Source: a bacterium
Lineage (GTDB): Bacteria; Hinthialibacterota; Hinthialibacteria; Hinthialibacterales; Hinthialibacteraceae
Direction of reading: 5' to 3'
Assembly: GCA_963662285.2 (NCBI GenBank)
Contig: CAXXMV010000008.1
Location: 960,001 to 1,024,000 of the forward strand
DNA length: 64,000 bases
The position numbers and the translations under genes are program-made. Within the stretch, counting starts at the first letter, position 1. Each line of letters opens with the position of its first letter. Below are positions 1,942 through 54,291 of the stretch, one piece after another. Below the pieces are notes generated by a model that was not told the DNA's origin, ran no database searches, and saw only the letters and a list, made by a program, of their open reading frames with translations.

Positions 1942-3762
1942 CTAATAAGTTTTCCATTGGTGAACGCCCGATTCCTGCCCCACTGCGGAGAATTGCAATC
2001 CCAGAATGCGCGTTCCTTCATAGCGCTGGTAATTTTTCGAAGACCTAAGATCGGTATATGTCGCCTGCCCTGTAGGCAGGTGAGTGGGAAGGATGCGGCA
2101 CAGGTTCATGGCGAAAGGCGCGGTACGATTTCTATCCACCAGTTTAACCAGCAACGGTTGCCGTCCGGCTTTCAAATGTATCTTTTTAGTTGGTCCGCCC
2201 GGCAGTCCGAAATTTTGATAGGAAGAATCATTATGATAAACCTGTTCGCCGTCAATCCAGACCGCGCAGGCCTCATCATGAGCAATCCATAATTCAGCAT
2301 CCTGTTCCTGAGGAACCGTCAGCCAGCAGAAAGCATAGTACACGCCGCTGTTGGCGGCGCCGTAATAGCCTTCAAAATCTATGATATCATCTGAGAAATA
2401 GATGGGTTCCGTCCAACCACTTTGCTGCGGCGTTGCAATCACATCTTTATCAGGTACATCAAAATATTGTCCGTCGATATCAATGCCATCGAATTTATTA
2501 ACCAACCATACGCGGTTGCTAGTTCCGAAATGCCCCCGGTTGCCCGAGTCGCCGCTTTTGGTTCGCTCAAAATAAAAGAGCGACTCTTTAAGCGAGTGCT
2601 CACTCAGCACTTCGATTTTATCTAAATCCATGGTTCCAAAACCTTCACGGGCAGCGGTATGCAGGTGAGATACGTCTTCCGGGTTCAAACCCATCAACAA
2701 AGCGCAGACGCTATCCAAAGCCACCATGTCAGTTCCAGCCAGAACCATATTGCGCCGCACAGATGGAGAATCTTTGGTTTTAGCGCGTTCTTTACAAATC
2801 GTCGCGTCAATCAGGCAGTAATCAGCTGGAGCAATGGAGGCCAAATCAATTATTTCATGTTCCACCGAATTCTGTTCAGGATAATTCTGGTGTAATCCAG
2901 GCGGGTCGCCGGGAGCGGGTCCGCCAATTCCTTTATAAGTACCGTATTTCGCTCCGGCTGCGGTTCCGATATAATTCTTGAGGCAGACAGTGATATTGGT
3001 ATTATGGATTTTCATGACGGGCACATTAATCAAGACATCCGCGTCGAGTATCGCTTCATGAACCCAATAAGAGGGATATTCGGGGAAGTCGATCCATTCA
3101 GGAGTCTGCACCAAACGTATGCCTTCGAGCGGTTCATCTGGCGTTCCGAAGTTGGCGTCAAGCAATACCACATCAACTCCTTTAGCAGCGAGCCGCTGTT
3201 GCATAGCTTTGTAACCTGCTAGCGCCAAACCATCACCGACCGTCGCGCCGCCGGTATTAAATCTGGTATTACGCATAGCGCTGGAGAGCCAACCGCCCGC
3301 CGCTTCAGCAACGGTATAGTTCAAATCGCCGGGACCGTTGTCTTCCATCCACATAATTAATCCTTCAATAATCCGTGGATCGGTATTGACTCCATTTTCT
3401 AATGGCGCCATTTCAACGATATTCGGTTTGATAACCACGTTAGCGCCGGGGAACAAAAGATCATCCAGCCCGCCATGTAGGTCCAGCGCACGATAAGCCA
3501 GTTCTATTATTTGCTCTGAACTTAGTTCCTGATCCAAAGCAACCGGATTATCCATGACGCTATCATCAGAGCGCATCAGCGCAATTTTGGTGGTATAGTC
3601 TGGAGATATACCGTCATTTTTCAGTTGAGAAACGGGGACCGCTTCGACGTGCGATGGAGATTGCAGAGTTGAAGCCAGGTCGAAACCTACGAGAATAAGT
3701 AATCCTATAATTGCTATTACGCGAAGTTTTAAGAATGAACGAATATGTCTTGGCTGAATCAT
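1942..3762 (-). CDS. Secreted DUF362 domain protein with C-terminal beta-sandwich (PA14-like) domain and C-terminal VxxWxxY tag
   Basis: N-terminal hydrophobic signal; DUF362 motifs VVIKPN, TDPR, INVPVMKIH, CLKN, DMVALDSV; C-terminal YAFCWL...DEACAVWIDG...LKAGRQPLLVK; ends SGVHQWKTY. Confidence 0.8.
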   Translation of the reverse strand: MIQPRHIRSFLKLRVIAIIGLLILVGFDLASTLQSPSHVEAVPVSQLKNDGISPDYTTKIALMRSDDSVMDNPVALDQELSSEQIIELAYRALDLHGGLDDLLFPGANVVIKPNIVEMAPLENGVNTDPRIIEGLIMWMEDNGPGDLNYTVAEAAGGWLSSAMRNTRFNTGGATVGDGLALAGYKAMQQRLAAKGVDVVLLDANFGTPDEPLEGIRLVQTPEWIDFPEYPSYWVHEAILDADVLINVPVMKIHNTNITVCLKNYIGTAAGAKYGTYKGIGGPAPGDPPGLHQNYPEQNSVEHEIIDLASIAPADYCLIDATICKERAKTKDSPSVRRNMVLAGTDMVALDSVCALLMGLNPEDVSHLHTAAREGFGTMDLDKIEVLSEHSLKESLFYFERTKSGDSGNRGHFGTSNRVWLVNKFDGIDIDGQYFDVPDKDVIATPQQSGWTEPIYFSDDIIDFEGYYGAANSGVYYAFCWLTVPQEQDAELWIAHDEACAVWIDGEQVYHNDSSYQNFGLPGGPTKKIHLKAGRQPLLVKLVDRNRTAPFAMNLCRILPTHLPTGQATYTDLRSSKNYQRYEGTRILGLQFSAVGQESGVHQWKTY

Positions 3763-3904
3763 GGTGAAATTCCTTGCTATGCTTTTGATTAAAATTTGAG
3801 CTAATCATCAGGCTTCTTTATATTAATACAATATAGCAGAATCATATTATTGTAACTGTAAATATTTATTCTTGAACAGCCATCGATAAAACAATAAATT
3901 AAAA

Positions 3905-5308
3905 CTACTTATAATCCATTCCAGCATTACTATGTTTACATGATTCACACCATGCAAGTAAATGCTGTTTCATCTTCTCAACAATTTTCGGTTTCTTGTG
4001 AGCAATATCATGCTTCTCGCCTGGATCAGCAAGGATGTCATAGAGTTCAAAAGGTATGTTATTGTTGGATCGATAGATTTTGTATTGATTATCGATCAAA
4101 GCTAATTGGTCTCTGGACTGGAATGCGATAGGAGAAGGCCGCTGCCTGGTTTGTCCTTTGAGAAGAGGCTTCAGACTAACTCCATCCAATGGTTCAGGCT
4201 TCCCTTCCCTTTGGTATCCCAGTATATCCAGCACGGTTGGTAAATAGTCGCTGGTCGAACAGGGAGCATCAATAGTTTCTGGACGTTTAATCATTGCAGG
4301 ATACGTCAAAAGCGCTGGAACGCGAATGCCGCCTTCGTATAGGCTGCGTTTTCGTCCACGCAGATATTTGGCTGATCCATTATGATCGTTCTTCGTCTTA
4401 CCTTCCGGGCCATTATCGCTGCAGAACCACATCATGGTATCATCATATGCGTCAAGTGATTTCAATTGATCCCGCAGCCGCCCGACTTGCTCATCCATAG
4501 CTGATATGCAGCCATAGTAATGCTGCGCCGCTTCATTTTGATCTTTATACAATGCGCGATGCTGCAAACCCGCCACTACAGGCAAATGAGGCGCGTGAAA
4601 CCATACCACAGCAAAGAAAGGCTTATCTTGATTCACCGCATTCTCTATAAAAGGGATCACCCGGTCCATGATGATGCGCGAATCATCGCCCTCCAAATTA
4701 TCTTCCACCCGCTGATCAGGCCCCGTCCAATAATAAGTTCCATAGGGATCATTGGTTCCTGGTTTTCGCATTGGATTATATGTCGGAACCTTGGCTTCAG
4801 TGGAAAAACAGACGTCAAAACCATTGCGCCAGGGAGGCGAGAAATGATCTTTGCCCCGTGGGCCGCCTCTGTTGCTTTCATTAATTTTAGTGTTTAGCGT
4901 TCCAAGATGCCATTTACCGAAATGGCCAGTTGTATAACCAAGAGATTGCAACGCTTCAGCCAGGGTGAATTCTTGAGGCTTCATAAAACCAGCGTTGGCG
5001 AAGTATACGCCGTACCGATAGGGATGGCGACCAGTAAGACAACTGCCGCGAGTAGGAGAACAGACCGGCGCTCCGGAATACCAACGTTCAAAGCGGATGC
5101 CTTCGCGACTCATAGCATCTAAATGAGGCGTCTTTAAAATGGGGTGACCATTATAAGCGACATCTCCCCAACCCTGGTCATCGGTCATGCAAAGTATAAT
5201 GTTGGGCTTGCGCTTGAATTCTTTCGCCGCCAGCAACAGTTTGGTATGGTAGAATGAAATAACGCCAAGCCCCAGTATTTGAAGTAGATCGCGACGATTG
5301 ATCATCAT
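3905..5308 (-). CDS. Sulfatase (formylglycine-dependent S1 family), probably Tat-exported
   Basis: PNIILCMTDDQG, CSPTR catalytic motif, GKWHLG, SDNG; N-terminal NRRDLL twin-arginine-like signal. Confidence 0.92.
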   Translation of the reverse strand: MMINRRDLLQILGLGVISFYHTKLLLAAKEFKRKPNIILCMTDDQGWGDVAYNGHPILKTPHLDAMSREGIRFERWYSGAPVCSPTRGSCLTGRHPYRYGVYFANAGFMKPQEFTLAEALQSLGYTTGHFGKWHLGTLNTKINESNRGGPRGKDHFSPPWRNGFDVCFSTEAKVPTYNPMRKPGTNDPYGTYYWTGPDQRVEDNLEGDDSRIIMDRVIPFIENAVNQDKPFFAVVWFHAPHLPVVAGLQHRALYKDQNEAAQHYYGCISAMDEQVGRLRDQLKSLDAYDDTMMWFCSDNGPEGKTKNDHNGSAKYLRGRKRSLYEGGIRVPALLTYPAMIKRPETIDAPCSTSDYLPTVLDILGYQREGKPEPLDGVSLKPLLKGQTRQRPSPIAFQSRDQLALIDNQYKIYRSNNNIPFELYDILADPGEKHDIAHKKPKIVEKMKQHLLAWCESCKHSNAGMDYK

Positions 5309-5535
5309 TAACCTCTCTATACTTTGGTTTTATCTTATCATTTAATCTGGCTCAATTATTACTCATTTTTAAGAAGACTATTATCTATTATAAGCAAAGA
5401 CATTTTTCAATTAATTCCATATTTCCTATTTCACACTATTCTAAGATATACTTAACTCTATAATAAATTATAGATAATTATTATTCGCCTATAAATACAT
5501 AAAACACAATATAATTATACACAACCAGGTGCTTA

Positions 5536-6933
5536 ATGAAAAAATATCATGTATTAATTGCTGATGACGATCCTTCAGTCCATATAATTCTTGATAGAGT
5601 CTGTAAAATTATGGACTGGACAGTAGATCACGCAACGACAGGCGAAGAAGCGCTCAAGTTAATCAGCGAGAAACTCCATCATATCTACATTCTTGATGTT
5701 AAAATGCCCGGGCCAGCCGGAGTTGAACTGGCTAGAATAATTCTTAAAGAGCAAGAAGCGCCAGCAATTTTAATTCTGACTGGATACGCTGAAATCAAAC
5801 AAGCTGTTGAAGCAATGAAAGAAGGAGTTTTCGATTATATACAAAAAGACTCCCTCAGAGTTGCAGAACTACAAAAAATATTAAAACATGCCGCGATGTT
5901 CCACGAAAACCGGTTATGGAGTTTTCAAATCAGAAAAGACCGTGAAAAAACCTTTAACAATATTGATTTAGCGAATAAACAATTCCAAGCTATCCTTGAA
6001 TTAAGCAGCGACCTGATATTCATCTTCAATTCAAAAACCGGAAAAATGATAGATTGCAACGCTTCAGCATGCAGATACCTGGATTATTCTCACAACGAAT
6101 TATTGACTTTTCAAATGAGTGATATCTGCGTAGATTTTTCTCAATCAGAATGGAATGAAATAATTCAACGTGGATTAATAAACAGACAAATAGTGATTGA
6201 GAAATCGTTAAAAACCAAAGATGGCGCAACTGTTCTGGTTGAAATGTCGCTTGCATTCGTATATCTGGACTCAGAAGGATACATCACCGCTATTGCAAGA
6301 GATATTTCTGAACGAAAACGCATGGAACTCAAAAGCCGTGAATATTATGATCAACAACAAAAAACATTAACTCAGACTATAGAAATGATGGCTCTGGCAT
6401 TTGAAAAGCGCGATATCTATACAGCAGGTCATCAGCTTCGAGTCGCGCAATTAGCGGAGAAAATTGGCAGAAAACTAACATTAAGCAATCAGCGTATTGA
6501 AGGACTCTATCTTGGAGGCTTAATTCACGACATAGGAAAAATCAGCATTCCCACCGATATTCTGAATAAACCAGGCAGAATAACCGATGAAGAACTTGAA
6601 CTGATCAAGACGCATTCCCAAATTGGTTATGACATTGTCAAAGAGATCAAGTTCCCATGGCCCATATCAGAAATGATAATTCAACACCATGAAAAATTAG
6701 ATGGAAGCGGATACCCCAACAACCTTTGCGGTGATGATATATTACTTGAAGCCAAGATACTCTGCGTTTCAGACGTAGTAGAAGCGATGGCTTCCCATAG
6801 ACCATATCGGCCTGCGTTAGGCCTCGAAAAAGCCTTGGATGAAATTTCATCTAAAAAATCAACCCTGTATGATCCAGATGTAGTTGAAACTTGCCTGTGC
6901 ATCTTCAGGGATGATGAATTCAAATTCCAGTGA
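5536..6933 (+). CDS. REC-PAS-HD-GYP response regulator (c-di-GMP phosphodiesterase family)
   Basis: Receiver VLIADDD...LDVKMPG; PAS domain; HDIGK and HHEKLDGSGYP motifs; RPYR. Confidence 0.92.
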   Translation: MKKYHVLIADDDPSVHIILDRVCKIMDWTVDHATTGEEALKLISEKLHHIYILDVKMPGPAGVELARIILKEQEAPAILILTGYAEIKQAVEAMKEGVFDYIQKDSLRVAELQKILKHAAMFHENRLWSFQIRKDREKTFNNIDLANKQFQAILELSSDLIFIFNSKTGKMIDCNASACRYLDYSHNELLTFQMSDICVDFSQSEWNEIIQRGLINRQIVIEKSLKTKDGATVLVEMSLAFVYLDSEGYITAIARDISERKRMELKSREYYDQQQKTLTQTIEMMALAFEKRDIYTAGHQLRVAQLAEKIGRKLTLSNQRIEGLYLGGLIHDIGKISIPTDILNKPGRITDEELELIKTHSQIGYDIVKEIKFPWPISEMIIQHHEKLDGSGYPNNLCGDDILLEAKILCVSDVVEAMASHRPYRPALGLEKALDEISSKKSTLYDPDVVETCLCIFRDDEFKFQ

Positions 6934-7061
6934 GAGTAGTTTTCACAATAATGTTCTGATTGGCGATTCGAAAAAGCCATAAAAGATTGGTTTTTCGAAG
7001 ACCAAAGGTGATAATAAACGAACATCATTTTGATAATCGCTCTATCTTCATAAAATTAAAA

Positions 7062-7100
7062 ATCTTCAAAAAAGCCCGTAAAATGGGCTTTTTTGAAGAT
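7062..7100. terminator. Bidirectional terminator-like hairpin between convergent genes
   Basis: ATCTTCAAAAAAGCCCG-taaaa-TGGGCTTTTTTGAAGAT; a second hairpin lies at 6967-6999. Confidence 0.7.
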
Positions 7101-7131
7101 AAAATATACTGTTGAGCAATACTCTTCATCC

Positions 7132-16152: not shown

Positions 16153-19100
16153 ATGAGAAACTACTGTATTGATTTGTGTTTAATTGGATTACTAATTATT
16201 TGCGCTCTTCCGGCAGGTTCAGACGTCGTCATCAATGAGATCATGTATCACCCTGAATCGGATCAAGATGATGATGAGTATATAGAGTTAGTCAACACTG
16301 GATCAGAAACGGTGAATCTGTCGGATTGGTCTATCAAAGGTATAAATTATAAGTTCCCGGCGGGAAGCGAAATTAATTCCGGCCAGTATTTGGTGGTGGC
16401 CAAGAATCCCGCCCGGTTCCAATCTACTTACAGCATCGAACCGTATGGGCCTTATGATGGGATATTGAGAGACAGCGGCGAGTCGTTGCGTCTGGTGGAT
16501 GCCAACGAGCAGGAAATTGATAGTGTGGAATATGATGATGAAAATCCCTGGCCGATCGCCGCTGATGGATTAGGAGCATCGCTGGAATGCATCAATCCAT
16601 CTTTTGATAATGCTCATCCCCGTAACTGGCGCGCTGCGGGTCAGGGATCGGAGTGGCAATACGTTGAAATTACTGATCAAGCCACAGCCACGCGGCTCTA
16701 TTTTTATTTGTAGGGCGCGGGCGAGTGCCTGATTGACGATGTTCAACTAATTAGTCATGAGACGTCAATCCAGGCGGGTTCATATCAAAGCATCGCTCAT
16801 CCAATGCAGTACCGGCACACGCCGGGAGGAGCGCAATACCTGGATATGCATTTGTCGAATACGGCAATTTTATTCGACGATACTATCAATCCACAAACAA
16901 TAAAGCTGCCTGATAATCCCAAGATCATGATTTTCGCTATAACTTTAACGACTTCGGAGGGCGAAGTCCAACTGGATTTATCGGAGGCTTTCAATCTCGA
17001 CGGCATCTCATGGTCAGATAATATTACAGACGGAAACCTGGATGGCGGAGGCTGCAGCTACGCGGCTGAACTGCTGCCGGAGGATCATATAATTACATCC
17101 GATGACGAACTGCCACAGGTTAATTGGACTATGGGATCGTACACGGATGGAGACCTTAACTGCATACGCTGTGAAGGTCAGAGCATTACTGTACCATCCG
17201 GTATGTATACCGGAATATACCTGCTGGCCAGCGCGGTTAACACAAGCACCGAAGAGGAACTGCTTACAGCCTCTAGTCCCAGTATGCAGCGCCAATTTCC
17301 AATTTCAGTTACTGATTGGGCTGTTGCTTTACCGGAAGGCGTCACAGGACCAGCAAACCTCGTACCCAATGGCAATTTCGAACAGAGCAGCGGACGATGG
17401 AATACATTGGGCGCTTACGCCGGTTCGTATATCTGGTCGGGCGATGCGCATGAGGGATCGTACTGCATGCACGTCGTGGGTACGGATGCAGGTTTGGATC
17501 ACAGATCGAGCGTTTGGCAAACTATAGCCGCAGCACAGATCGGCGAGACATATACTTTATCATTCTGGGCCAAGGGATTATCAGGCAACAGTACGCTGGT
17601 CAGCCGGTTCTATGGCGACAGTCATCTCACCGAGACGCAATTATCGGCCAAGGGATCTCCGGGATTACTCAATAGCGTTTTTTCCGTAGATATACCTCCA
17701 TTCATTACTGAAGTTTCGCAATCACCTGAAGAACCTTCCTCAGATGATCCACTGCTGATAACTGCTCGTATTGAGGATATCGAGGGACTTACGTCAACCG
17801 TTTTGACCTACCAGGTTGGTAATGGTTTGCGGCAGGATATTGCGATGTCGGATGACGGTTTCGACGGTGATGCTGCTGCGGGAGACGGAATATACTCCGC
17901 GCAGATACCCGCCGCTCCATCGCAGAGCATCATTCGCTATAAAATACTGGCGACCGATAACGCCGGGCAAGTTACTTCAGCGCCGCTGAAAAATGAACCA
18001 ACCGAAGTTTTCGGCGCGTTTGTCTATGACGGTGAACTGCAATCCAAGACGCCAATTTATTGGCTTTTCCTGAGTAATGAGGTTTATCAAAACCTTTTGA
18101 GGTATCCGCAAAGCAATGATTTCGTAAAAGGAACCGTGGCCATAGGTGGAAGAGCGTATGATAACGTAGGCATAAGGTTCCGGGGTCAATGGGCCAGATC
18201 GTGGCCTAAGAAAAGTTGGAAACTCCGCTTCAATAAAGATAACTATTTTGATGGTAGACGCACAGTCAACCTGAATTCTGGATATCATGACCGCGCTTAT
18301 ATCCGCGAATACCTCTGTTACCGTTTCTACCGTGAAGCCGGATGCCGGGCCTGTAAGGCTCAGATGGTTCAAGTATATCTAAACGGAGAATTCTATGGGA
18401 TTGAGGTGGATGTCGAGCAGGTCAATGAGCAGTTTCTCGAAGCAAACGGCCTTGACGCTGATGGTAATATTTATAAGAGCAAACAGGGCGGAGATCTACG
18501 AAAACTTTCATCAGAAAGTGCATATCATGGTCCTTATGAGAAAAAGACCAACGAAAATGAGGATTGGAGCGACCTGAAAGAATTCGCTGACGGATTGGCT
18601 GATACGCCCTCAAGCGAGATACATGCCTTCTTGCATCAAAATGTTCCAGTAGACGAAATACTGCGTTACTGGGCGGCGACTACCATCTTGCAGAATTGGG
18701 ATTCGATCATTAAAAACCATTATCTATACCATGATACCAATGATACGGGACTCTGGTATATGATTCCCTGGGATCTCGACCGAACCTGGGGAGAGTATGC
18801 CAATTGGAATCTAGGCGCTGAGCAGGATATTCTGGCGGGTATGCGTCAGCATCCACCCGGATTCGGATTGCCCAGCGACTGGTGGAACCGGCTGATTGAC
18901 GCCATGCTCAAACAACCGGATATGCTGGAACAATACTATGGTCACATTCGCTACCAGCTCGATAATATTTTCACTGAAGAGAATATAAACCAATGGATCA
19001 GCGAACAGTATCAGAACATCTATGATCTTGTACCCGCCGACCAACAGCAATGGGGAACGCATGGCGCGTGGCAGCCTTTCAGGCAGGAGATCGAGAATTG

Positions 19101-19179
19101 CAAGGATTTCGTGCGAGACCGCCGCGCATTTCTTTACCAGTTTCTACCTGTGGATGTTGCGGATTGGCAGGTTTATTAA
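16153..19179 (+). pseudogene. Lamin-tail + CBM-like + Ig-like + CotH kinase family secreted protein with one in-frame TAG at 16711-16713 (nonsense allele, readthrough or sequence error); C-terminal VxxWxxY tag
   Basis: ORFs 16153-16713 and 16804-19179 are in the same frame with no other stop (RLYFYL*GAGECLIDDVQL...). VVINEIMYHP lamin tail; MSDDGFDGDAAAGDGIY; CotH motifs RFRG, KKSWK, KNHYLY, PWDLD; ends VDVADWQVY. Confidence 0.85.
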
Positions 19180-24976: not shown

Positions 24977-26424
24977 ATGCAAAAATTTGTATTTCTAATG
25001 TTGGTCAGCCTTTTATTCATTTCATTTACGTCTTCTCCTTATTGCGCAACTCTCATCGTAAAACAAGATGGTTCGGGCGATGCAAGCACTATCCAGGCGG
25101 CGTTTAATGCAGCCGGCGGATGGCGATATAATCGAGATCGGCGACGATGGAACATACAATGAAGATGTAACCGTCAGCCCCTTTCTAGCTGCGGTGGGGC
25201 ATCCCCGCCGCCCCTCTGGTCTCATTCACTCTGCAAGCCGCGGAAGGCAAGCATCCGGTGATTCAAGCGGCTAATGCAGAGTCATCCCAACGCATGAGCG
25301 CATTAGGCGTACCCGGGCGCGACATGCTGGGATTCAGCATCTGGGGATGTCAACATGTTGTTGTAAAAGGCCTGGAAATCGCCAATTTCGAAAATGTAGT
25401 CAATGAGTTCGGCGTCCAGTCATCATTGGTTATTGCTGATTGCGATGATGTCATTATTGAGGATTGCACAATCCGCGGCCCCAATGAACGATCAGCAGGC
25501 GAAGGCAATGCCATTCTCATTGCCGGCGTACAGGCCAATCCATTCCGCGCGGATAATATAACTGTCCGCAATTGCCTGATTACAGAATCGCATTACGGCA
25601 TCATATCAGCCATGTTCCAAAAAGGCTCTGGAGTCGACCCGATCAATGTAACCATCGAGGATTGCCAGTTTATCAATGGTTTTGAATCGGGCGTAGACGT
25701 CGACAACGCCGAAAACATGGTTATCCGCAATTGCCTGTTTGATAATTATCACCACGGCATTCATTTCGCTGGAGGCAGTTCGCTGGTGGAAGATTGCATA
25801 ATCAAGAACTCAAAGGGAGAAGGGCTGGAGTGTCAGGTTGATACCAACTGGAACGAATCCATAACCAACGTTATCGTGCTCCGCTGCGCCATCCTCGGCA
25901 ACGGATTAGAGACGGATGATGCTCCAGGCGTGGAATGCACCGATGGACCGTTACTGTTTGAGAACTGCATAATCGCAGGCAACACCGGACCGGGCATTAA
26001 AGTTGCTACCGACTCAAACTCCGCGGTTAACGCAGTATTCGACCATTGCGATATATATGAAAACTATGGCTTGGCGGAAATCATGATTTTCGGCGGAGGG
26101 GATCAGACCGCTAAACTGACCGTAACCAACAGCAACATTGTCAGTTCCGGCGGCGGCTTCGAGAATGAGTTGGATCCATCAGTGGTCACCGCGCATCATA
26201 ACAATGTCGCCGTATCCTTCGACGCCTATTACAATGTAGACGCCACTGACAGCGTCGCCAATGATCCCCTGTATGAATCACCCACCAACAATCCGGATGA
26301 TTTCTCGTGGGATGGCTTCAAACTTAAAACCGGCTCACCATCGTTGAACGCTGGTGAAGATGGATCGACTATTGGATATACCGGGTCGTCTGTGACATTG
26401 ATTAATGCTTGGGAGATATTTTAG
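24977..26424 (+). pseudogene. Secreted right-handed beta-helix (pectin-lyase-like) protein with two +1 frameshifts (probable sequence errors); C-terminal IxxWxxF tag
   Basis: AGGAGG RBS then MQKFVFL signal peptide; removing one G at about 25115 and one at about 25196-25199 gives ...TIQAAFNAAADGDIIEI...AAVGIPAAPLVSFTLQAAEGKHPVIQAAN; repeated I(E/R)(D/N)C beta-helix coils; ends TLINAWEIF. Confidence 0.8.
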
Positions 26425-29539: not shown

Positions 29540-31486
29540 ATGAACCAAGAAAATATTTCAGTTCAGATATGTAATCCTAGGTGCACTTTATCGAATTGCA
29601 TGGATATTTTATGCTTGACTCAGCTTTGGTCGGGAAAATACCTCTATCTGACAGGGCTTACGCTGATTCTGCTTTTGCTTGCCATTCCTCTGAACAGTTA
29701 TACTGAAGACGATGCTCCAATACAGCAATTCGGTGAAGGAAGCGCCGTCTTTGCCGCTTACTCATCGACCGGTAAGTATATTATCACCGCCAGCGAAGCG
29801 GGTCATGCAATCCTGTGGAATGCGGAAACAGCTGAGGTTTTGAAACGCTTTACCGGGCATACAGGCGCTATCAGCATGGCAATCCTGTCTCCAGATGAGA
29901 GTAAACTGCTCACGGGAAGTACAGACGGCGCAGCGAAATTGTGGGATATTGAAAGCGGTCAGGCAATTCAAACTTTCAGTGGACATGGTGGAACTGTGGA
30001 ATCGGTCGCCTTTTCGCCGGATATGATGCGGATATTGACCGGATGCGCTGATGATACGGCCCGGCTTTGGGATGCCGCGACAGGGGAATTGATCCGCACC
30101 TTCAGTGGAAGAAGTCCGGCGTTGTTTACGCTGGATGGAATGAAAGTACTGACATTAATCAATCTATGGAATGCAGAAACAGGCGAAATGATCCACACGT
30201 TTCCTGCTGACGGATACAGTATGGGAGCGTCGATATCTCCTGATGACACGCGAGTTCTATCTGGAGGAGGCGTCACTGAATCCGATTACGGCAAAGCCAG
30301 GATGTGGGATATCGAAACAGGCGCCCTGCTGAGATCGTTTTCAGATACTTCCACTTATCAGATTACTGCTGTCGCATTCTCAGGTGATAGTACAAACATA
30401 CTCACAGGAAATCTGGATGGGGACGTTAAACTTTGGGATGCCGAAACAGGTGCACTTATTCGTAAGTTTTCTGGTGATTCGGGAGAGATTCTCTCTGTTG
30501 ATATGTCACCGGATAATTCGACAATTATGGCTTGTACTAAAGATGGCGTAGTACAACTATGGAAAACAGATACTGGTGAAGCAAGCAGTACGCTACCAGG
30601 ACATTCGACGACCGCTTATACAGCCGCATATTCTCCCGATGGAATGAGCATACTTATTGCAGGATGGGGATATGACGCCATACTATTTGATGTTAAGACA
30701 AGCAGGGAAATCCGAAAGTATTCCGGCCACTCCAATCGCGTCATATCTGCGGCCTTCTCTAAAGATGGAACTAAAATACTGACCACAAGTTGGGATAATA
30801 CGGCAAAGATATGGGATGCCAATACAGGCGCCGAAATTCGTTCGTTTCCCATGTCAGCGCTTGCTTTCAATAAATCAGCCTATTTCTCACCCGATGGAAT
30901 GCAAGTCTTAATTGCCAGTAGTTCTTCAGCGAATCTATTCAATGCATTGACAGGAGAAAAAATCCGCACATTTGATGGCGCCGCCCCGGTAGCATTCTCA
31001 CCGGATGGGAAATCATTGTTAATAGGACCGGGCGATGAAGCCGCATTGCTTGATATACAAACTGGCGATGTCATCCGAACTTTCAGCGGACATCCGGGAT
31101 ATTTCCTGAGTTGCCTGGCGTTCTCGGCGGACGGGCAATGGGCGCTAACCGGAGCTGATACTGCGAAAATCTGGGATGTGGAGACAGGTAAGGAACTTAG
31201 AACATTTAGCAGCGCAACGCATAGTGTAGGTCGTGCGGTTTTTTCGCCTGACAAACGTTTTTTGCTAACAGGAAGTTTAATTAATCAAAACGCGATATTG
31301 TGGAATGCGGTGATGGGTAATAAAATCCGGATGTTTGAGGCGCATAATGGAGCGGTGGAATCCGTTGCTTTTTCTCCGGACGGACTTCACATCCTGACAG
31401 GATGCACCGACGGCATAGCGCGGATATGGGATATTTCCGACATTGCTTCTACCTCGGAAATAAGTGATTTTACGTTGTATAAGTAA
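29540..31486 (+). CDS. Secreted WD40-repeat (double beta-propeller) protein with C-terminal IxxFxxY tag variant
   Basis: Hydrophobic signal (LTLILLLLAIPLNS); about 14 GH...V.SVAFSPDG...TG..D..A.LWD repeats; ends SEISDFTLYK. Confidence 0.9.
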   Translation: MNQENISVQICNPRCTLSNCMDILCLTQLWSGKYLYLTGLTLILLLLAIPLNSYTEDDAPIQQFGEGSAVFAAYSSTGKYIITASEAGHAILWNAETAEVLKRFTGHTGAISMAILSPDESKLLTGSTDGAAKLWDIESGQAIQTFSGHGGTVESVAFSPDMMRILTGCADDTARLWDAATGELIRTFSGRSPALFTLDGMKVLTLINLWNAETGEMIHTFPADGYSMGASISPDDTRVLSGGGVTESDYGKARMWDIETGALLRSFSDTSTYQITAVAFSGDSTNILTGNLDGDVKLWDAETGALIRKFSGDSGEILSVDMSPDNSTIMACTKDGVVQLWKTDTGEASSTLPGHSTTAYTAAYSPDGMSILIAGWGYDAILFDVKTSREIRKYSGHSNRVISAAFSKDGTKILTTSWDNTAKIWDANTGAEIRSFPMSALAFNKSAYFSPDGMQVLIASSSSANLFNALTGEKIRTFDGAAPVAFSPDGKSLLIGPGDEAALLDIQTGDVIRTFSGHPGYFLSCLAFSADGQWALTGADTAKIWDVETGKELRTFSSATHSVGRAVFSPDKRFLLTGSLINQNAILWNAVMGNKIRMFEAHNGAVESVAFSPDGLHILTGCTDGIARIWDISDIASTSEISDFTLYK

Positions 31487-39939: not shown

Positions 39940-41058
39940 ATGAAAAAAGTAATTTTCACCGTTTTATGCTGCACAATCGCAATGATCTCTTTCGCACAGG
40001 ATCAGGTCTTCATCACTGGATTTGAAGATACTGAAGAAATAACCGGAGAGTGGAGTTGGATAGGGGGCGCATTCACATCATTCGTCGATTATCCAACCGA
40101 TCCAGCGCCGGTTGAAGGTGAGGCCGCACTGGTGGTAATCTATGACAACAATGGTTCTGAATGGCAGCACGCCAGAATGGATTTCGCTGTTCCCGCCGTC
40201 GATCTAACCGGGATGCGCGAGATTCGCATGTCGGTTTATTTCACTCCTGAATCTACCGGAGATATGAGTATTCGCTTCGACTTACCGAATGGGAACAGTC
40301 TCGGTTTCGCTTATGTCCCGAATACGGGAGAATGGCATGAATTGTCTTGGAAAATTGACCGGTTGACATCCGCTACCAGAGTGAGCAGCGTTGGCTATAT
40401 TCAAGGTTTTATCTGTCCCACTCCAGGCGATGCAGCTGGTGAAGTGTTTATTGACAATATGTACGCCATCCGGCCTGCCTCAATGCCCGAACTCGAAGAA
40501 ATCATGCTTTATGGATTCAATGAAGCCGATCCAGAAACCAGCGCTCCATCCGGCTGGATCAACGCGGAAGGCGCGTTACCGGAATTAACCAACGATTGGG
40601 TAGAACCTTTAGAAGGTTCGGATTCAATGGTGTTTTTCGCTGGGGGTGGATATCTACAAAATATAGTTACCACAAACGCTCTTGAAGTTTTCGACAGATG
40701 GGATGAAGTAAGCGAAATACTGTTTGATCTTAGGATCGCTGAGTCAGTCCCAGGAGATTGGCTTCAAAGCCGTTTGCGTTTTCGATCCGGCATTACAGGC
40801 AACGATGATGCCTTAGTCGAAGAAACCACCAAGGAAATGGGATACTCCGACGCAACCGAAGCATGGAAAACCATGTTATTTGAAGTGGATTTATCCAACC
40901 ATGTCGATAACATGAATGATCCCAACGGCTGGTTTGAAATCCGCATTGATACTAACAACGCTGCCTCCGCAGATGGATTTGCGATATTCATCGATAATTT
41001 CAGGGTTGCAGTTCCTGTCGGCGGTCCAGTCAACGTCTCTGAATGGAACCTGTATTAG
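39940..41058 (+). CDS. Secreted acidic protein with two galactose-binding-like/CBM domains and C-terminal VxxWxxY tag
   Basis: Signal peptide; two modules starting (T/Y)GF(E/N) and ending FIDN; ends PVNVSEWNLY. Confidence 0.75.
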   Translation: MKKVIFTVLCCTIAMISFAQDQVFITGFEDTEEITGEWSWIGGAFTSFVDYPTDPAPVEGEAALVVIYDNNGSEWQHARMDFAVPAVDLTGMREIRMSVYFTPESTGDMSIRFDLPNGNSLGFAYVPNTGEWHELSWKIDRLTSATRVSSVGYIQGFICPTPGDAAGEVFIDNMYAIRPASMPELEEIMLYGFNEADPETSAPSGWINAEGALPELTNDWVEPLEGSDSMVFFAGGGYLQNIVTTNALEVFDRWDEVSEILFDLRIAESVPGDWLQSRLRFRSGITGNDDALVEETTKEMGYSDATEAWKTMLFEVDLSNHVDNMNDPNGWFEIRIDTNNAASADGFAIFIDNFRVAVPVGGPVNVSEWNLY

Positions 41059-48581: not shown

Positions 48582-48615
48582 AGCAAGAGTAAACCAAGTC
48601 CCCTCTCCAGACCAT

Positions 48616-48722: not shown

Positions 48723-48762
48723 GCGCCCGATTTTCCAGCAACCTAAGGCATCACAGATTCAC

Positions 48763-49749
48763 CTAAGGCAATTGATAATCAGTCATGCTTTCATAGAAAT
48801 CCTGCATTATTTTATCTTTATCAAAATTTTCCCAGATAATGATATTGCGTGGATTATCAGGTCGATCCACCCATTTTTTATTCACTACTTTCGGCGCGGG
48901 GATTTCAATAGGCGTCGCCCAGGATGAATTTTTCACAATCGCCACCGCCGCCATATCAAATAGAGCGCGTGATGGAGGGTTGCCATGCAGCTGGATATTC
49001 TGGAAAAGGTTTAGTGAGTAGTCGCCGAAATTTGTAAATTCCTTGCCATGTCTTCCGACAACCGGTTTAGATATTTGAGGCCCTTTGCCCGGCATATTGC
49101 GCTTGATATCAGACAAGGCGGCGCGAACTGCGTCTGTACCGGATGGCTTGCCATAACGCACAATGGCAAATTCAAACTTAACCTTGGCATCAAGGATATA
49201 ATTCAGTGATGGCTCATCATTGACTTGATTGTATTCGCCCGGTTCGGGGTAATTCGAACCAAGCCACACGATCCTGACTTTTGAAGCAATGGCAGGCTCT
49301 TTTTTCAGAGCCAGCGCGATATTGGTCAGTTTCCCTACCGGCAGCAATACCAATTCTCTGGAGTCTTCCGCCAGGGCGCGCTTGATAATATGATTGACCG
49401 CTTCTGAACCATCAAACTCTTGCTGGCCGACATTATTCTTTATCTCATCGAAACTGCCATTGGCGCCAGTATAGACTTTGATCTTAGGATGCAGGTTGCA
49501 TAATTTCACAACCCGTTCCGCTTCTTCATAATGCTTATCAACCTCACCACCGCTTTTGGTCTTGTTGACGGTGATGCCTTCTACATCAAACACGTCTCCG
49601 TTAAACAGCATGTAAGCGATGGCGTGTTGATCATCCAGTTCATTATTGGCGTCGGTATCTAGAATAACCCGAATCTTTTCAGCCGCGCTGCACTCAACCA
49701 GCGCAGCAACCAATAAAGACATAATAAATAAAACAGATAATTTTCTCAT
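48763..49749 (-). CDS. Secreted nucleoside-hydrolase-fold protein (IU-NH family)
   Basis: Signal peptide; ILDTDANNELDD, GKLTNIALAL, WLG...EYN motifs. Confidence 0.82.
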   Translation of the reverse strand: MRKLSVLFIMSLLVAALVECSAAEKIRVILDTDANNELDDQHAIAYMLFNGDVFDVEGITVNKTKSGGEVDKHYEEAERVVKLCNLHPKIKVYTGANGSFDEIKNNVGQQEFDGSEAVNHIIKRALAEDSRELVLLPVGKLTNIALALKKEPAIASKVRIVWLGSNYPEPGEYNQVNDEPSLNYILDAKVKFEFAIVRYGKPSGTDAVRAALSDIKRNMPGKGPQISKPVVGRHGKEFTNFGDYSLNLFQNIQLHGNPPSRALFDMAAVAIVKNSSWATPIEIPAPKVVNKKWVDRPDNPRNIIIWENFDKDKIMQDFYESMTDYQLP

Positions 49750-49797
49750 TGGACTGAACTCCTTGTGTTATTGTTTCATAACTTATGCAATTAAATA

Positions 49798-51213
49798 CTA
49801 TGGTTGAGGATACTTTTGACTCTCGTCTTCCAATATAAGTATCCAATCATCTACATCGCCCGAAGTGGGAGGCGTATATGTTTGGATTCCTGAATTATCG
49901 GATGTATGGATATAATACGAAACGCCATATCGTGGATCATACCAGGTTTGTTTGACTCCTTTTGCTTTGATGCGACTTTTATCGATTGAAAATCGTTCTC
50001 CACGCGGTGAATAGATAAAGGCGAACGATCCATCTCTGGCGCGGGCAGCCCGTATCTTGGCGCCTCCATTAGCAGGTCCATCAACGATCATACTCTGATC
50101 CGGGACTAATTGATTGAACGGTTTCGATTCAAACAACTTTTTTACATGTCCCATTTGAAATGCGCCGGGATGATCCAGCGCTTCTTTCCAGGGGATATTG
50201 GCGCTGATAACCGGGCCGCGTCCCGGCTGCCACATCTGCCAGATGCTGTTGTTTCCATAAGTATGACCACAGGCGCCAGCCAGCAATGACCAGTAGGCCG
50301 CTTGACGGGCGTCGTAATCGGTGAATCTTTGGTTGGCGTTAATTCCCTTAAAATAGAAGCCGACCTGGATCGTTTCGTATCTTGGTTCGCCGTCAATGGT
50401 AGGTTTGGTCGGCTTGAGATTGTAGTCATGATCGATAAACAGACCGTTGTCATGGTCGCGGGCGCCATGCGATGATTGCACCATATTAAAATCCAGCCAA
50501 TCAGCATTATGCAAGGCATCTGAAGACAAGCCCGGCCCCCGTGGATGAAAAGTCATCAAGTGAGCGCCGCCGTCGCCTTGATCCAATCCGGCGGCGATAG
50601 CATCAACGATTTTACGCTCATCATCGCACTTAATATTCTCATCGCCGCCCAGCACCCAGATAACCGGTTTATCTTTATAGCGTTTCCCTAGAAATTCACC
50701 ATACTGTCTGGCGCTCGATTCATTAAACAGGAATGGACCTTTGCGGTTTGCGCTCTTCCAATAGTTACCCCAGGTAGGCAGCATCCCGATATACAATCCA
50801 AGTTGCTGCGCCTTGTTGACGATGAAATCCACATGCTTAAAATACGCTTCATTAGGCCGCGTGGGGTCCTTATCTATCAGTGGACAATCGCCATAGGGAT
50901 TTGGCGCATCCAATCCACCAAGTTGAGCGATCACCACGGCTTGAATAACCGTAAAACCTTTTTCCGCCCGGTTTGATAAATAAAGTTCCGCTTCTTCGCG
51001 GTTCAATCGATGAAACAGTTCCCAGGCGGTATCACCCAGATAGAAGAATGGCGAGCCGTCTTCATATTCCAGATAGCGGTTATTGTCGCAAACCCGCAGG
51101 TTCTTAAATTCCACTGCCGCACAGTTTGCATCTGCCAATACAAACACAGTTAATAAAGCCAATGCGCCAGCCATTAACCGCTCCACCCCGAACACAGCTT
51201 TACCATATTTCAT
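49798..51213 (-). CDS. GH140/DUF4038 (apiosidase-like) protein with C-terminal collagen-binding-like domain
   Basis: PFFYLGDTAW, GFTVIQ, WVLGGD, TFHP, DGEPRYE, GHTYG, WYDPR, DDWILIL. Confidence 0.88.
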   Translation of the reverse strand: MKYGKAVFGVERLMAGALALLTVFVLADANCAAVEFKNLRVCDNNRYLEYEDGSPFFYLGDTAWELFHRLNREEAELYLSNRAEKGFTVIQAVVIAQLGGLDAPNPYGDCPLIDKDPTRPNEAYFKHVDFIVNKAQQLGLYIGMLPTWGNYWKSANRKGPFLFNESSARQYGEFLGKRYKDKPVIWVLGGDENIKCDDERKIVDAIAAGLDQGDGGAHLMTFHPRGPGLSSDALHNADWLDFNMVQSSHGARDHDNGLFIDHDYNLKPTKPTIDGEPRYETIQVGFYFKGINANQRFTDYDARQAAYWSLLAGACGHTYGNNSIWQMWQPGRGPVISANIPWKEALDHPGAFQMGHVKKLFESKPFNQLVPDQSMIVDGPANGGAKIRAARARDGSFAFIYSPRGERFSIDKSRIKAKGVKQTWYDPRYGVSYYIHTSDNSGIQTYTPPTSGDVDDWILILEDESQKYPQP

Positions 51214-51339
51214 AATACTCTCCCATATTGAACCATTATTATAAACATAGCAGTACTTTTAATATCCAGTAAATTCAAGAATATCCCGATTTACCTTATT
51301 TTACAATTTCAACGATATATCCATTACAAAGATGCAACC

Positions 51340-51963
51340 TCACCGTGGAAACGCTACGTTGCCATCGCTGACCAATCCATTGGATGAATCGTAGCCGTAG
51401 GTATATGGCCAATCCACTTCCAGGGCGAAGCCGTTGTTTTTGCTGCTGACGTCGGTGTCGGGGCCGCGCCCTTGCAGGCAATAGCGCCAGTTGGCTGGAC
51501 GCCGGGGGTCGTTCATATTGGCGCGGTATTGATTCTGCCCGGCCTGATAGAAATACTTGCCTTCTCCTCTGGGATCGAAATAGGCCTCGTAGAAATCCAC
51601 GCTGGCTTCTTTCTTGCCGCTGAAGAATGGGTCGCATGGAATAGCGGTGATATATGAGATGGGAGTGGTCAACACTTTGGGAAGCCCCCATCCGTTATCC
51701 GGTTCGTTAAATCCATTGGGTGGAATCTTGCCCCGGTCGAGCGAGTACATCTCCAACGCGGTGACGCAGGCCTTCATATCCGCCAGACAACGCGAATATT
51801 TAGCACGAATCTGAGCATTGAGAAAATTGGGTACGGCGATAGCGGCCAGGATGCCGATGATGGCGACCACGATGAGTAGTTCGATTAATGTAAATGCACT
51901 TGTGCGATTCACAGAAGAATTTGCGGCAATGCGGTTCTTAACCGCCATAGTTGTTTTATTCAT
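51340..51963 (-). CDS. Type II secretion pseudopilin / type IV pilin-like protein (N-methylation domain)
   Basis: SA|FTLIELLIVVAIIGILAAIAVPNF; LTTPISY, GRGPD, YDSSNGLVSDG; start at 51963 or 51948 rather than 52032. Confidence 0.88.
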   Translation of the reverse strand: MNKTTMAVKNRIAANSSVNRTSAFTLIELLIVVAIIGILAAIAVPNFLNAQIRAKYSRCLADMKACVTALEMYSLDRGKIPPNGFNEPDNGWGLPKVLTTPISYITAIPCDPFFSGKKEASVDFYEAYFDPRGEGKYFYQAGQNQYRANMNDPRRPANWRYCLQGRGPDTDVSSKNNGFALEVDWPYTYGYDSSNGLVSDGNVAFPR

Positions 51964-51975
51964 GATTTTAAGGTT

Positions 51976-52011
51976 GAAAAAGAACAGGGCGATGCATGCG
52001 CCATCGCCCTG
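51976..52011 (-). terminator. Intrinsic terminator between the CBM gene and the pilin gene
   Basis: CAGGGCGATG-N7-CATCGCCCTG followed on the minus strand by TTCTTTTTC. Confidence 0.7.
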
Positions 52012-52038
52012 CTCCAGGTTCATTCCATCCATTCAGTT

Positions 52039-54291
52039 TTAGTTCAACATCCAGTCAAGAACCGCCGTAGGAGCGGTGGGACCCGCTTTGAGGTTGTCGA
52101 ACCGGGCGTGATTCATATATAGCATGTCGCTCAATGCGTCGCTGTAGCAAGCGCGGTAATGCAATCCAGCCGGACCGAAGGGATAGTCGCCGTCATTGAT
52201 TTCGGCGATTGGTGCGCCATCCACCAGGAAGGATACTTTGCCATTCAAGTATTCGATGCGGAAACGATGCCATCCGCTGTCGGTCAAAGTTACCCGCGCG
52301 AAATCTTCGGCGAATCCTTCGGTGCGGTTGATAACATGAACCTTGCTGTTGCCGGGGGCGTACTTGCGGGCGATGATGTCGCCGCTGTCGGTTTCAAAAG
52401 AAATAGCATAGCCGCCGGAACTGCGGTAGGTATTGCTGTCGCCCAGAGCGTCCATCGACGGTTTGTCAGGATTGAAAACGCTGCAATGCACTGCCAATGA
52501 AATACGGTCGAACATATTCTCCGGCGCATCAAAACGAACATCGCAATATGCGTCGACTTCGACGAAATAATTGGCGTCGGCGTTCTGTCCGAAGGCCAGC
52601 ATATCCCAACTAAAGAAACCACCCACTTCCAGCGCATAACTTGGGCTGGTCGCTCCTTCAAGCGTGTTGGGTTCAATATAATAGAGAACTGTTTCATCGC
52701 CGGCAGCGTCAGGGAAATTGACCTGATAGAAAGTATCCTGAGTAACATCGATTATCGGCCGGACATCGCCTGCTTCTTCGTGTCCCCATTCACGCGAACC
52801 GCGATAAACTATTTCTGGATTCAAACCGCTTGGGTCGAATTGATCGGCGATAGCGTTATCTTCCAGACTATTGAAGAGACTGGGTATAGCGCTGAAATCC
52901 TGAGTATAGGCGTCGCCGAACATGGTAACGGTTTCCGCAGCCGGATCGAAATCGTAATATTTGGCTATAGGTCCGACGCGGTATTGCTTGCCCTGTTGCA
53001 GGTCGTTAAACGAATAGGCGCCCGACTCATCAGTGACCGTCTGATACACTGAATTCTGATCTATGGCGAATACCATAACGCCAGCTAGAGGTTGATCTGC
53101 TTCGGTGATGGTTCCTGTGATAGAAGCGGCGGCCTGCTGGCTGACGAACTGAACGTCATCTACATAGAAGGTTGCGACTTGATCCACGTCATCGCCCACG
53201 CACATTAAACCCAATGCCACAACATCGTTTTGGTTGGCGTCGGGAGTATCCGTACCGTATCCTGCGTCCCATTCCTCTTCGCCAAAGGCATCGAGCGAGA
53301 GGGTGAGTTTCTGCCAACTGGCGTTAGTGGTGTAATCGTTGGGCAGCGCGAATCGCAGAGCGCGTCCCTGGCTATCGTACAAAAAGACGGTGAAAGTCAA
53401 CTGACCGGGAGTCACGTTGGCGTCGCCGTAAAACCACATTTCCACCGCCGCGAATTTTGAAAGACTCAAGGCGCCTGCTTCAAAATCCTTGCGAACCGTG
53501 TTATGCCACCATTTTTCCGGCAGATCAACGTCCATCAATAAACAACCGGAACCCTGGGGCGAGGGATTCTGATCATCTATCGAGATAAACAGACCGTCGG
53601 GGCCGCCCGCCTTGCTGAATTGCCACACTGTGTTGAGATCGTCGTTGTTGGCGTAACCGTCAAACGCATCGACTACCATGCTTTCAGGTTTGATGTTCAT
53701 TTTGATGTCGTCGACGTAGAAGGTGGCGAACTGTTCAACTTCGTTGCCAACCGTCATCAAGCCAACTGATACGATATCGGTTTTATCGGCGTCAGGCGCG
53801 TCAGTGCCATAACCTGAATCCCACTCTTCTTCGCTGAAGGCGTCCAACGACAGGGTGATTTTCTGCCATTCGGGATTAACGATGTAATCATTGGGTAGCG
53901 CGAATTTCAACACGCGACCTGCGCTGTCATACAGGAAAACATTGAACGCCAGGGCGCCGGGAGTGACGGATGCATCACCAGCGAACTGAAACTGGATATT
54001 GAGATACTCAGAAAGGTCCAATGGGCCTATAGGAATCTCTTTACGAATGATGTTGTGCCACCATTTTTCGGGCATATCGATATCCATAGCCAAACAGTTG
54101 GAACCCTCGATGGCGCCATTGGTCTCCAGCCAGGCGTAAAGACCATCCGGGCCGCCCGCTTTGGAAAACACCCAGTTCTCCTGAACGTCGAAATCGTCGA
54201 TATAGGTTTCGAAATCATCGATGGGCAATGTCTGGGCGTTCACGTTGAACGCCGACATGACCAGCGCTGCAAATAAAATAATCCGGTACAT
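52039..54291 (-). CDS. Secreted protein: two tandem CBM11-like domains + carboxypeptidase-regulatory-like + ConA/lectin-like domain; C-terminal VxxWxx tag
   Basis: Signal peptide; two ~180-aa repeats (FSKAGGPDGL, PEKWWHN, FALPNDY, ATFYVDD); SITGTIT...TDESGAYSF; WHRFRIE...VDG...GPAGL; ends TAVLDWMLN. Confidence 0.8.
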   Translation of the reverse strand: MYRIILFAALVMSAFNVNAQTLPIDDFETYIDDFDVQENWVFSKAGGPDGLYAWLETNGAIEGSNCLAMDIDMPEKWWHNIIRKEIPIGPLDLSEYLNIQFQFAGDASVTPGALAFNVFLYDSAGRVLKFALPNDYIVNPEWQKITLSLDAFSEEEWDSGYGTDAPDADKTDIVSVGLMTVGNEVEQFATFYVDDIKMNIKPESMVVDAFDGYANNDDLNTVWQFSKAGGPDGLFISIDDQNPSPQGSGCLLMDVDLPEKWWHNTVRKDFEAGALSLSKFAAVEMWFYGDANVTPGQLTFTVFLYDSQGRALRFALPNDYTTNASWQKLTLSLDAFGEEEWDAGYGTDTPDANQNDVVALGLMCVGDDVDQVATFYVDDVQFVSQQAAASITGTITEADQPLAGVMVFAIDQNSVYQTVTDESGAYSFNDLQQGKQYRVGPIAKYYDFDPAAETVTMFGDAYTQDFSAIPSLFNSLEDNAIADQFDPSGLNPEIVYRGSREWGHEEAGDVRPIIDVTQDTFYQVNFPDAAGDETVLYYIEPNTLEGATSPSYALEVGGFFSWDMLAFGQNADANYFVEVDAYCDVRFDAPENMFDRISLAVHCSVFNPDKPSMDALGDSNTYRSSGGYAISFETDSGDIIARKYAPGNSKVHVINRTEGFAEDFARVTLTDSGWHRFRIEYLNGKVSFLVDGAPIAEINDGDYPFGPAGLHYRACYSDALSDMLYMNHARFDNLKAGPTAPTAVLDWMLN

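Follow-up and report, generated by a model that had tools for sequence, protein, structure and literature searches.

A short C-terminal tail on exported proteins of unrelated folds in Hinthialibacterota and a second candidate phylum: a possible docking tag

Six window proteins and their common C-terminus

The stretch of DNA considered here (64,000 nucleotides in all, hereafter 'the window'; positions 960,001 to 1,024,000 of contig CAXXMV010000008.1, assembly GCA_963662285.2) comes from a bacterium of the phylum Hinthialibacterota, and six of its 35 open reading frames (ORFs) encode proteins that end in variants of one short peptide, which we call the tail (consensus T-x-[V/I]-x-[D/N/E]-W-x-[L/I/M]-[Y/F/H]-COOH). 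The six tails, as read from the translations and scored with a position matrix derived from the genome's own termini, are the following:

1945-1971, minus strand: tail SGVHQWKTY of a DUF362 protein (gene 1942-3762; score 10.9 at the exact end)
19150-19176, plus strand: tail VDVADWQVY of a CotH protein (ORF 16804-19179, a piece of a split gene; score 20.3)
26395-26421, plus strand: tail TLINAWEIF of a beta-helix protein (ORF 25258-26424, with its 5' part in another frame; score 11.9)
31454-31480, plus strand: tail SEISDFTLY, followed by one extra Lys, of a WD40 protein (gene 29540-31486; score 10.0 in the +1 register)
41029-41055, plus strand: tail VNVSEWNLY of a two-domain beta-sandwich protein (gene 39940-41058; score 20.3)
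52042-52068, minus strand: tail TAVLDWMLN of a protein with tandem modules resembling carbohydrate-binding modules (CBMs) (gene 52039-54291; score 19.1)

A preliminary description of this DNA, made from the letters alone, had proposed these C-termini as carriers of a common sorting signal, and the translations agree with its reading: five proteins bear the tail at the exact end (scores 10.9-20.3) and the WD40 protein one residue further in. The latter falls below the score of 12 that was required for termini with one extra residue in the genome-wide count of 180 given below; it is counted as the sixth carrier because only 31 of 1,949,783 internal 9-mers reach a score of 10. The tail is confined to these six, since none of the 29 other window ORFs carries it, though 18 of the 35 look signal-peptide-bearing. 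The proteins themselves have little in common: Pfam assigns DUF362 (a domain that stops at residue 354 of the 606-residue protein), CotH together with CBM_4_9 (the CotH model stopping at residue 777 of 791), Beta_helix and WD40, with weak or no matches for the beta-sandwich and tandem-CBM-like proteins, and the CotH protein additionally contains a 'choice-of-anchor X' domain (NCBIfam).

The further claim, that all six start with a Sec-type signal, has to be qualified, as the CotH and beta-helix ORFs have no signal peptide as called, because both genes are interrupted and their signal-bearing starts are found in pieces of their own. The CotH gene falls into two parts on the plus strand, 16153-16713 (signal peptide and lamin-tail-domain piece) and, 90 bases on, 16804-19179 (CBM/CotH piece); its closest relatives are single proteins of 996-1016 residues, and the split represents either a pseudogene or an assembly error. 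For the beta-helix gene the signal-bearing start (MQKFVF...) is found at 24977-25162 (plus strand), in a frame that differs from that of ORF 25258-26424, so that either the gene is frameshifted or the sequence is in error at that place.

Genome-wide census and spread among genomes

The census covered the window's genome (7.29 Mb, 44% GC, 8 contigs, 92.5% complete), in which 5169 ORFs were called with a crude heuristic (longest ORF, codon-usage score, greedy non-overlap; 87% of bases covered) and signal peptides with a crude hydrophobicity rule. Tryptophan at the fourth position from the end (-4, the last residue being -1) occurs at 3.1 times its background frequency (246 ORFs), and the expression [VIL]..W..[YF]$ matches 113 of the 5169 ORFs, as against 1.2 expected from its internal rate. 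An iterated position matrix on the termini converges on 153 sequences, with T at -9 in 104, V/I at -7 in 148, D/N/E at -5 in 106, W at -4 in 142, S/M/E at -3 in 115, L/I/M at -2 in 134 and Y/F/H at -1 in 144. The core of the motif first proposed ([S/T/V]x[V/I]xx[W/F]xx[Y/F]-COOH) is thereby borne out and refined, as position -9 (Thr, 104/153) also belongs to it.

A score of at least 6 is reached by 158 termini and by none of 15,507 random internal windows. With all registers admitted, the tail is present on 180 ORFs (3.5%; fewer than one expected), in 155 of them at the exact end, in 24 with one extra residue (the +1 class, for which a score of 12 was required) and in one with two. At a core score of at least 14 there are 147 terminal matches and 29 matches among 2,058,332 internal windows, and even these are mostly terminal in character (21 lie one residue and one lies two residues from the end, which leaves only 7 truly internal). 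The tail is a real peptide, locked in position to the chain end far beyond chance. Asp or Glu accounts for 14 of the 24 extra residues in the +1 class, compared to 16.8% at other termini (p = 5e-6), which hints that whatever reads the tail may sense a negative charge at the chain end. Furthermore, synonymous codons differ among the tails, and we conclude from this that selection acts on the peptide and not on a DNA repeat.

The tail marks exported, acidic proteins of unrelated folds. Signal-peptide-like N-termini were found in 158 of the 180 tagged ORFs and in 1422 of the 4989 untagged ones (a first-pass count gave 135/155 versus 1445/5014, odds ratio 16.7), and most apparent signal-less exceptions either have a visible signal peptide that the rule missed or belong to broken genes; the association with secreted proteins that had been suspected in the window thus extends to the whole genome. 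The same applies to acidity, the net charge being -0.085 per residue in tagged proteins and -0.017 in other signal-peptide-like proteins. Lipoboxes are no more frequent among tagged than among other signal-peptide-like ORFs (8/135 versus 130/1445), and Pro, Glu, Gly, Thr and Ser are over-represented in the six residues that precede the tail. Among 40 randomly drawn tagged proteins (Pfam, E up to 1e-6), 21 had no match and the other 19 were spread over more than 10 different architectures: CotH with lamin-tail domain (7), peptidases of families C1, S8, S15 and S9, CBM9, Laminin_G_3, FG-GAP, periplasmic-binding-protein-like folds (3), cadherin/Big_9, leucine-rich repeats with tyrosine phosphatase, DUF3160 and WD40.

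Other genomes were scanned at the DNA level with the back-translated tail followed by a stop codon (RTN7-TGG-N4-TN-TWY-TRA) and, as control, with the same pattern reversed; such patterns catch only some of the tail variants, and the taxon names used here are those of record titles and protein names. The window's genome yields 110 matches (control 22). Within the window's phylum the matches exceed the control in all 35 genomes and do so at least three-fold in 31 of them (e.g. 130 versus 11 and 117 versus 9; the weakest, G027, has 13 versus 8). Close protein relatives and two of the pattern matches are named Candidatus Hinthialibacter or Hinthialibacteria OLB16, and some of the records are titled Omnitrophota. 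A stricter pattern, applied to one genome per species for 185,579 species, recovered 60 loci, distributed by record title over Sumerlaeota/Sumerlaeaceae (14), Omnitrophota (5), Hinthialibacteria (2), 'bacterium' (25) and other named taxa (14; twelve taxa with single loci and Planctomycetaceae with two, in different metagenome-assembled genomes). Two Sumerlaeota-titled genomes gave 11 and 17 matches (control 0 in both), and in a Planctomycetaceae genome (6 versus 3) and an Armatimonadota genome (27 versus 22) the matches were at chance level.

In this second, Sumerlaeota-titled phylum the signal is patchy: about 25 of 61 sampled genomes (a sample in which kinship between the genomes is not known) reach 10 matches or more with a four-fold or greater excess over the control (e.g. 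65 versus 4, 58 versus 5 and 25 versus 0), and ten have two or fewer. The patchiness is partly an artefact, because the pattern demanded a stop codon directly after Tyr/Phe. A variant with Asp or Glu before the stop gave 103 matches over the 61 genomes (control 7) and rescued some of them (e.g. G046, 10 versus 0, and G075, 7 versus 0); G063, G065, G079 and G094 showed no signal with either pattern. With Thr at -9 included, five further genomes had 26-40 matches each and 0-2 in the control. The tail has been conserved as a peptide in two candidate phyla, patchily in the second.

The tail, the fold of its protein and known sorting systems

The 372-residue beta-sandwich protein of the window (gene 39940-41058) and the CotH protein allowed us to compare the tail with the domain in front of it. 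The former has 34 relatives by search, and the tail is kept in 30 of the 31 aligned, the sole tail-less sequence being one that is cut short. Between the last strand (...DNFRV.VP) and the tail the linker varies by up to five residues among relatives, and the W is kept in more than 90% of orthologues despite these length changes. In AlphaFold models the 372-residue protein (31-row alignment) has a mean predicted local distance difference test score (pLDDT) of 89, its last strand spans residues 348-359 and residues 366-372 fall below 50; the CotH protein (41-row alignment; mean pLDDT 80) has its last helix at 745-766, and residues 772-777 again fall below 50. The models, together with the variable linker, predict that the tail is free and lies outside the fold of the last domain, and contradict the alternative named at the outset, that it is simply the last core strand of each domain. 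Across the CotH family, the tail is present in an accepted register in 8 of 47 homologues, all of them close relatives of the window protein; in another near relative nine residues follow the tail, and the remaining homologues stop directly behind the ...RRAFL helix. Two distant CotH homologues carry the type IX secretion system (T9SS) domain PF18962 at the place where the window lineage has the tail.

No named sorting-signal model matches the tail, as originally supposed: neither NCBIfam (E up to 0.1) nor Pfam (E up to 0.01) sorting-signal models gave a match in the six window proteins. In general plan the tail resembles the tripartite signals (LPXTG/sortase, PEP-CTERM/exosortase, GlyGly-CTERM/rhombosortase, MYXO-CTERM), which likewise consist of a short C-terminal signature that is shared by many unrelated signal-peptide proteins of one lineage and placed behind a low-complexity linker. 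In these systems (and in PGF-CTERM) the signature is however followed by a transmembrane helix and a basic cluster, whereas here the protein ends at the motif. In accordance with the preliminary description, none of the 180 tagged ORFs has a hydrophobic run of 14 or more in its last 45 residues, and a membrane-embedded transpeptidase therefore cannot act on such proteins in the known way. PEP-CTERM (PF07589) has no match in the genome, and none in 14 control genomes either.

The C-terminal domain of the T9SS (Por_Secre_tail, PF18962 / TIGR04183) also marks exported, often carbohydrate-active or adhesin-like proteins of diderms for the surface. The tail is, as had been stated, far shorter: a free peptide of nine residues versus a folded domain of about 70-100. 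PF18962 is found in none of the six window proteins and gives one sub-threshold match in the whole genome; for SprA (PF14349) there is no match in this 92.5% complete genome, and equally none in the 14 control genomes. The outer-membrane-protein beta-signal and the DegS-activating Y-x-F C-terminus share with the tail an aromatic last residue and the need for a free chain end. In the beta-signal, which is the last strand of a barrel, hydrophobic residues alternate at -1, -3, -5 and -7; the tail differs in its conserved hydrophobic positions (-1, -2, -4 and -7) and in its carriers, which are soluble multidomain proteins. In its operation the tail may also resemble the peroxisomal targeting signal PTS1 (SKL-COOH, which is read by the TPR domain of PEX5) and carboxylate-clamp ligands, that is, very short chain-end tags read in trans, probably with the terminal charge included; PTS1 itself belongs to a eukaryotic system and has another motif. 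Finally, the dockerin-cohesin pair of the cellulosome offers the precedent of one C-terminal module shared by many unrelated extracellular enzymes and binding modules (CotH included), and cohesin-domain proteins are encoded in a secretin/PilMN locus of the window's genome. Dockerins differ in being duplicated calcium-binding modules of about 60-70 residues (the tail has nine), and PF00404 matches none of the six window proteins or the 40 sampled tagged proteins.

Candidate machinery and rival explanations

In the search for a reader of the tail we examined the gene families that lie within two genes of tagged genes (601 neighbours, compared to the proteome by BLAST). The only enriched family is type-IV-pilin-like, with 29 of its 105 members near tagged genes (12.6 expected, p = 1.3e-5); by motif, 25 of 117 pilin-like genes directly adjoin a tagged gene. 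By a narrower, earlier pilin motif, a pilin-like neighbour was found for 14 of 155 tagged genes, as compared to 4.7 ± 2.0 for random signal-peptide genes (maximum 11 in 500 draws). Adjacent pairs are mostly co-directional (13 of 15, with gaps of -4 to 300 bases), and the window itself contains two such genes around the tandem-CBM-like gene 52039-54291:

54592-55215, minus strand: type-IV-pilin-like gene just upstream of the tagged gene, on the same strand (N_methyl and IV_pilin_GFxxxE matches)
51340-52032, minus strand: second pilin-like gene, on the same strand and downstream of the tagged gene at a distance of 6 bases (N_methyl match at residues 42-66)

The product of the second is 38% identical to that of the first, and its true start probably lies further in, because the N_methyl match begins only at residue 42. 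The genome as a whole encodes 105-117 type-IV-pilin-like paralogues with a near-invariant N-terminus (FTLIELLIVVAIIGILAAIAVPNF), and 84 of 117 carry a C-terminal ...NG..S.GD... motif. A special pilin subfamily beside tagged genes was considered and rejected, as this motif is present in 19 of 25 adjacent and 65 of 92 non-adjacent members. In the second phylum, pilin adjacency was seen in 4 of 20 loci taken around tails (two genomes). Hsp20-like genes (e.g. contig 6, 1386610-1387011) were likewise dismissed as a linked family: four of the seven have a tagged gene no more than two genes away, an excess (p = 0.005) that does not survive correction for multiple testing.

The genome is diderm-like, with 8 secretin genes in 7 loci and 7 TonB-dependent-receptor Plug domains in 7.3 Mb (six of the seven Plug domains form one tandem array on contig 6, at about 1102000-1113200). 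Among the secretin loci are three GspD-type systems with pseudopilins, one Tad system and sets that resemble type IV pili. There are also two small secretins next to a TPR protein and, in one locus, a fusion of TPR and secretin accompanied by PilM/N and a pair of proteins with cohesin domains. In this last locus (contig 8, 412000-432000) the secretin has 1057 residues with an N-terminal TPR region, PilM and PilN are fused, and both Cohesin-domain proteins are exported. The cohesin-like protein does not discriminate as a candidate reader, being present in 58 of the 61 second-phylum genomes with or without the tail. Matches to the pilin-like and cohesin-like proteins are weaker in genomes without the tail, which probably reflects merely their distance. 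PDZ proteins are represented by three HtrA-like proteases, one S41 (CtpA-like) protease and RseP, all of ordinary type, and by two or three odd secreted proteins; no GspC-like PDZ protein was found in the seven secretin loci.

A different line of evidence comes from gene regulation. The window's genome has three cobalamin riboswitches, one of which (contig 6, 1397253-1397464, 100 bits) heads an operon (locus 1396515-1402141) of the following composition:

gene 1: exported protein of 278 residues, ending in a near-tail and two further residues
gene 2: tagged protein of 445 residues, ending ...AVDSWQLY
gene 3: pilin-like gene whose start overlaps the preceding stop codon
gene 4: membrane protein

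A second pilin-like gene lies divergently upstream, and the operon contains no TonB-dependent receptor. The 445-residue protein has homologues in 33 of the 35 genomes of the window's phylum; in 30 fetched loci a recognisable tail (score of at least 6, in some register) is present in 24 homologues, and in a scan of 20 loci the riboswitch was upstream and in the same orientation in 17, downstream in one and absent from the fetched flank in two. Compared by sequence with solved structures, this protein had no usable match (best E = 0.099), and its only look-alikes, in a protein atlas, are propellers of the BNR/sialidase type (score 0.92), which we take as a lead only. Most plausibly, the tagged proteins under B12 control would capture corrinoids for the cell, and their retention at the cell would therefore be favoured over free release.

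Taken together, these observations lead us to favour, tentatively and at slightly less than an even chance, a reading of the tail as a C-terminal docking tag that would be recognised in trans on Sec-exported proteins and linked to a pilin-like/secretin machinery. Following export to the periplasm, the tail would stay free on its short Pro/Gly/Glu/Thr/Ser linker, where a receptor would read the side chains of Thr-x-Val...Trp-x-Leu-Tyr together with a negative charge at or next to the chain end; the tag would thereby keep binding proteins and enzymes at the cell surface, functionally tied to the expanded type-IV-pilin-like/secretin machinery. Recognition in trans, the part played by chain-end charge, docking rather than release and any link to pilin-like proteins are what we infer; retention is preferred because of the B12-riboswitch-controlled tagged pair and because much of the cargo consists of binding modules. 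Several points weigh against this docking scheme. The pilin-like family is present in all 61 sampled second-phylum genomes, with tail signal or without, so that its distribution does not follow that of the tag; pilin-like neighbours are found for only about a seventh of the tagged genes, and in the B12 loci a pilin-like gene lies directly downstream in only 4 of 30. Release would suit the peptidases and other enzymes of the cargo just as well, and no receptor for the tail emerged from neighbour enrichment, second-phylum profiling or inspection of the PDZ proteins and secretin loci. When the final 32 residues of a tagged protein were co-folded with the globular domain (residues 38-207) of a pilin-like protein, in a run without controls, the score was 0.00 (mark 0.32), an outcome that speaks neither for nor against the scheme. 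A bolder version, in which tagged binders and enzymes would be hung on fibres made of the roughly 100 pilin-like paralogues, working through the many secretins, seems to us improbable; if true, such fibres would hold or reel in polysaccharides and vitamin B12, and would largely replace TonB-dependent receptors (only 7 Plug domains).

Among the rival explanations, the one we take most seriously, while still considering it unlikely, is a linear secretion signal, i.e. a tail that would be read in the periplasm so that folded proteins are handed to a type II-like secretin system for release. It would suit a cargo that is exported, very acidic and rich in enzymes, in a genome that offers 8 secretin genes in 7 loci (at least three of GspD type with pseudopilins) and in which other C-terminal export tags are nearly absent (one sub-threshold Por_Secre_tail, no PEP-CTERM match), and the enrichment of pilin-like genes beside tagged genes fits it as well. 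To our knowledge, however, a linear signal is absent from the type II substrates described so far; no component came to light whose distribution follows that of the tag (the cohesin-like protein of the secretin operon occurs in 58 of 61 second-phylum genomes regardless), and the B12-regulated binders make more sense if retained. More doubtful still, and in our estimate a long shot, is the idea that the tail binds a periplasmic PDZ protease (HtrA/DegS-like or CtpA-like) as its ligand and would in this way serve processing, quality control or envelope-stress signalling. The aromatic last residue, the dependence on the chain end and the PDZ domains of the three HtrA-like proteins, the S41 protease and RseP, along with those of the two or three odd secreted proteins, would be in keeping with such a role, but the conserved stretch covers nine residues including -9 and -7, and typical PDZ ligands are shorter. 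Moreover, extra residues are tolerated by 25 of the 180 tails, the tail is restricted to certain lineages while these PDZ proteases occur universally, and a degradation or stress signal borne by 3.5% of the proteome and kept across two phyla is hard to explain.

The two remaining explanations are contradicted by the data. That the tail acts within its own molecule, completing the final domain as its last strand or as a cap, could be thought of because it often stands behind a beta-sandwich ending ...DNFRV...; we hold this to be very improbable, as the tail follows unrelated folds (the all-helical CotH end among them), has a pLDDT below 50 in both models and a linker with insertions and deletions in front of it, and is missing from the CotH relatives outside these lineages, which end after the last helix (39 of the 47 homologues). 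Only the crudeness of the gene calls speaks for chance, composition bias, a DNA repeat or a gene-calling artefact, to which we assign a practically negligible probability in view of the excess over expectation (113 versus 1.2), the failure of any of the 15,507 random internal windows to reach the score of about 155 termini, the codon variation among tails, and the DNA counts, which include the stop codon and stand at 110 versus 22 in this genome and, with the stricter pattern, at 26-40 versus 0-2 in five further ones.

No description of the tail was found in the full-text literature (supplements excluded) on Hinthialibacterota, Sumerlaeota, new C-terminal sorting signals and the tail strings themselves, and measured against that literature the tail is new. 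In the passages searched, neither 'C-terminal' nor 'secretion' appears in the Hinthialibacter paper (PMC9324843), and the Sumerlaeota paper (PMC8092238) contains neither 'C-terminal' nor 'sorting'. Should the tail serve sorting or docking, sequence alone would suffice to define the surface and secreted proteome (about 3.5% of genes) of two phyla that are uncultured, occur worldwide and degrade polymers, and proteins would be targeted by a route that can do without a membrane anchor and without a folded sorting domain. This raises the questions of which partner recognises a free C-terminus of nine residues in the envelope of a diderm, and whether the expanded pilin-like families work together with tagged binders, in B12 uptake among other processes. 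As a minimal and portable tag, the tail could also be of practical use for surface display.

Two minor features of the tail may be of help in this respect. Local dialects occur, such as ...W-R-[L/V]-[Y/F] in G001 (own phylum, another family) and ...RRW.LYD in G048 (second phylum), and could aid in finding co-varying receptor residues. In a few orthologues (a CotH relative, P0040, and loci L150 and L154) the tail is followed by 4-9 further residues, which look like read-through past a lost stop codon; orthologues with residues past the tail provide natural tests of the need for a terminal position.

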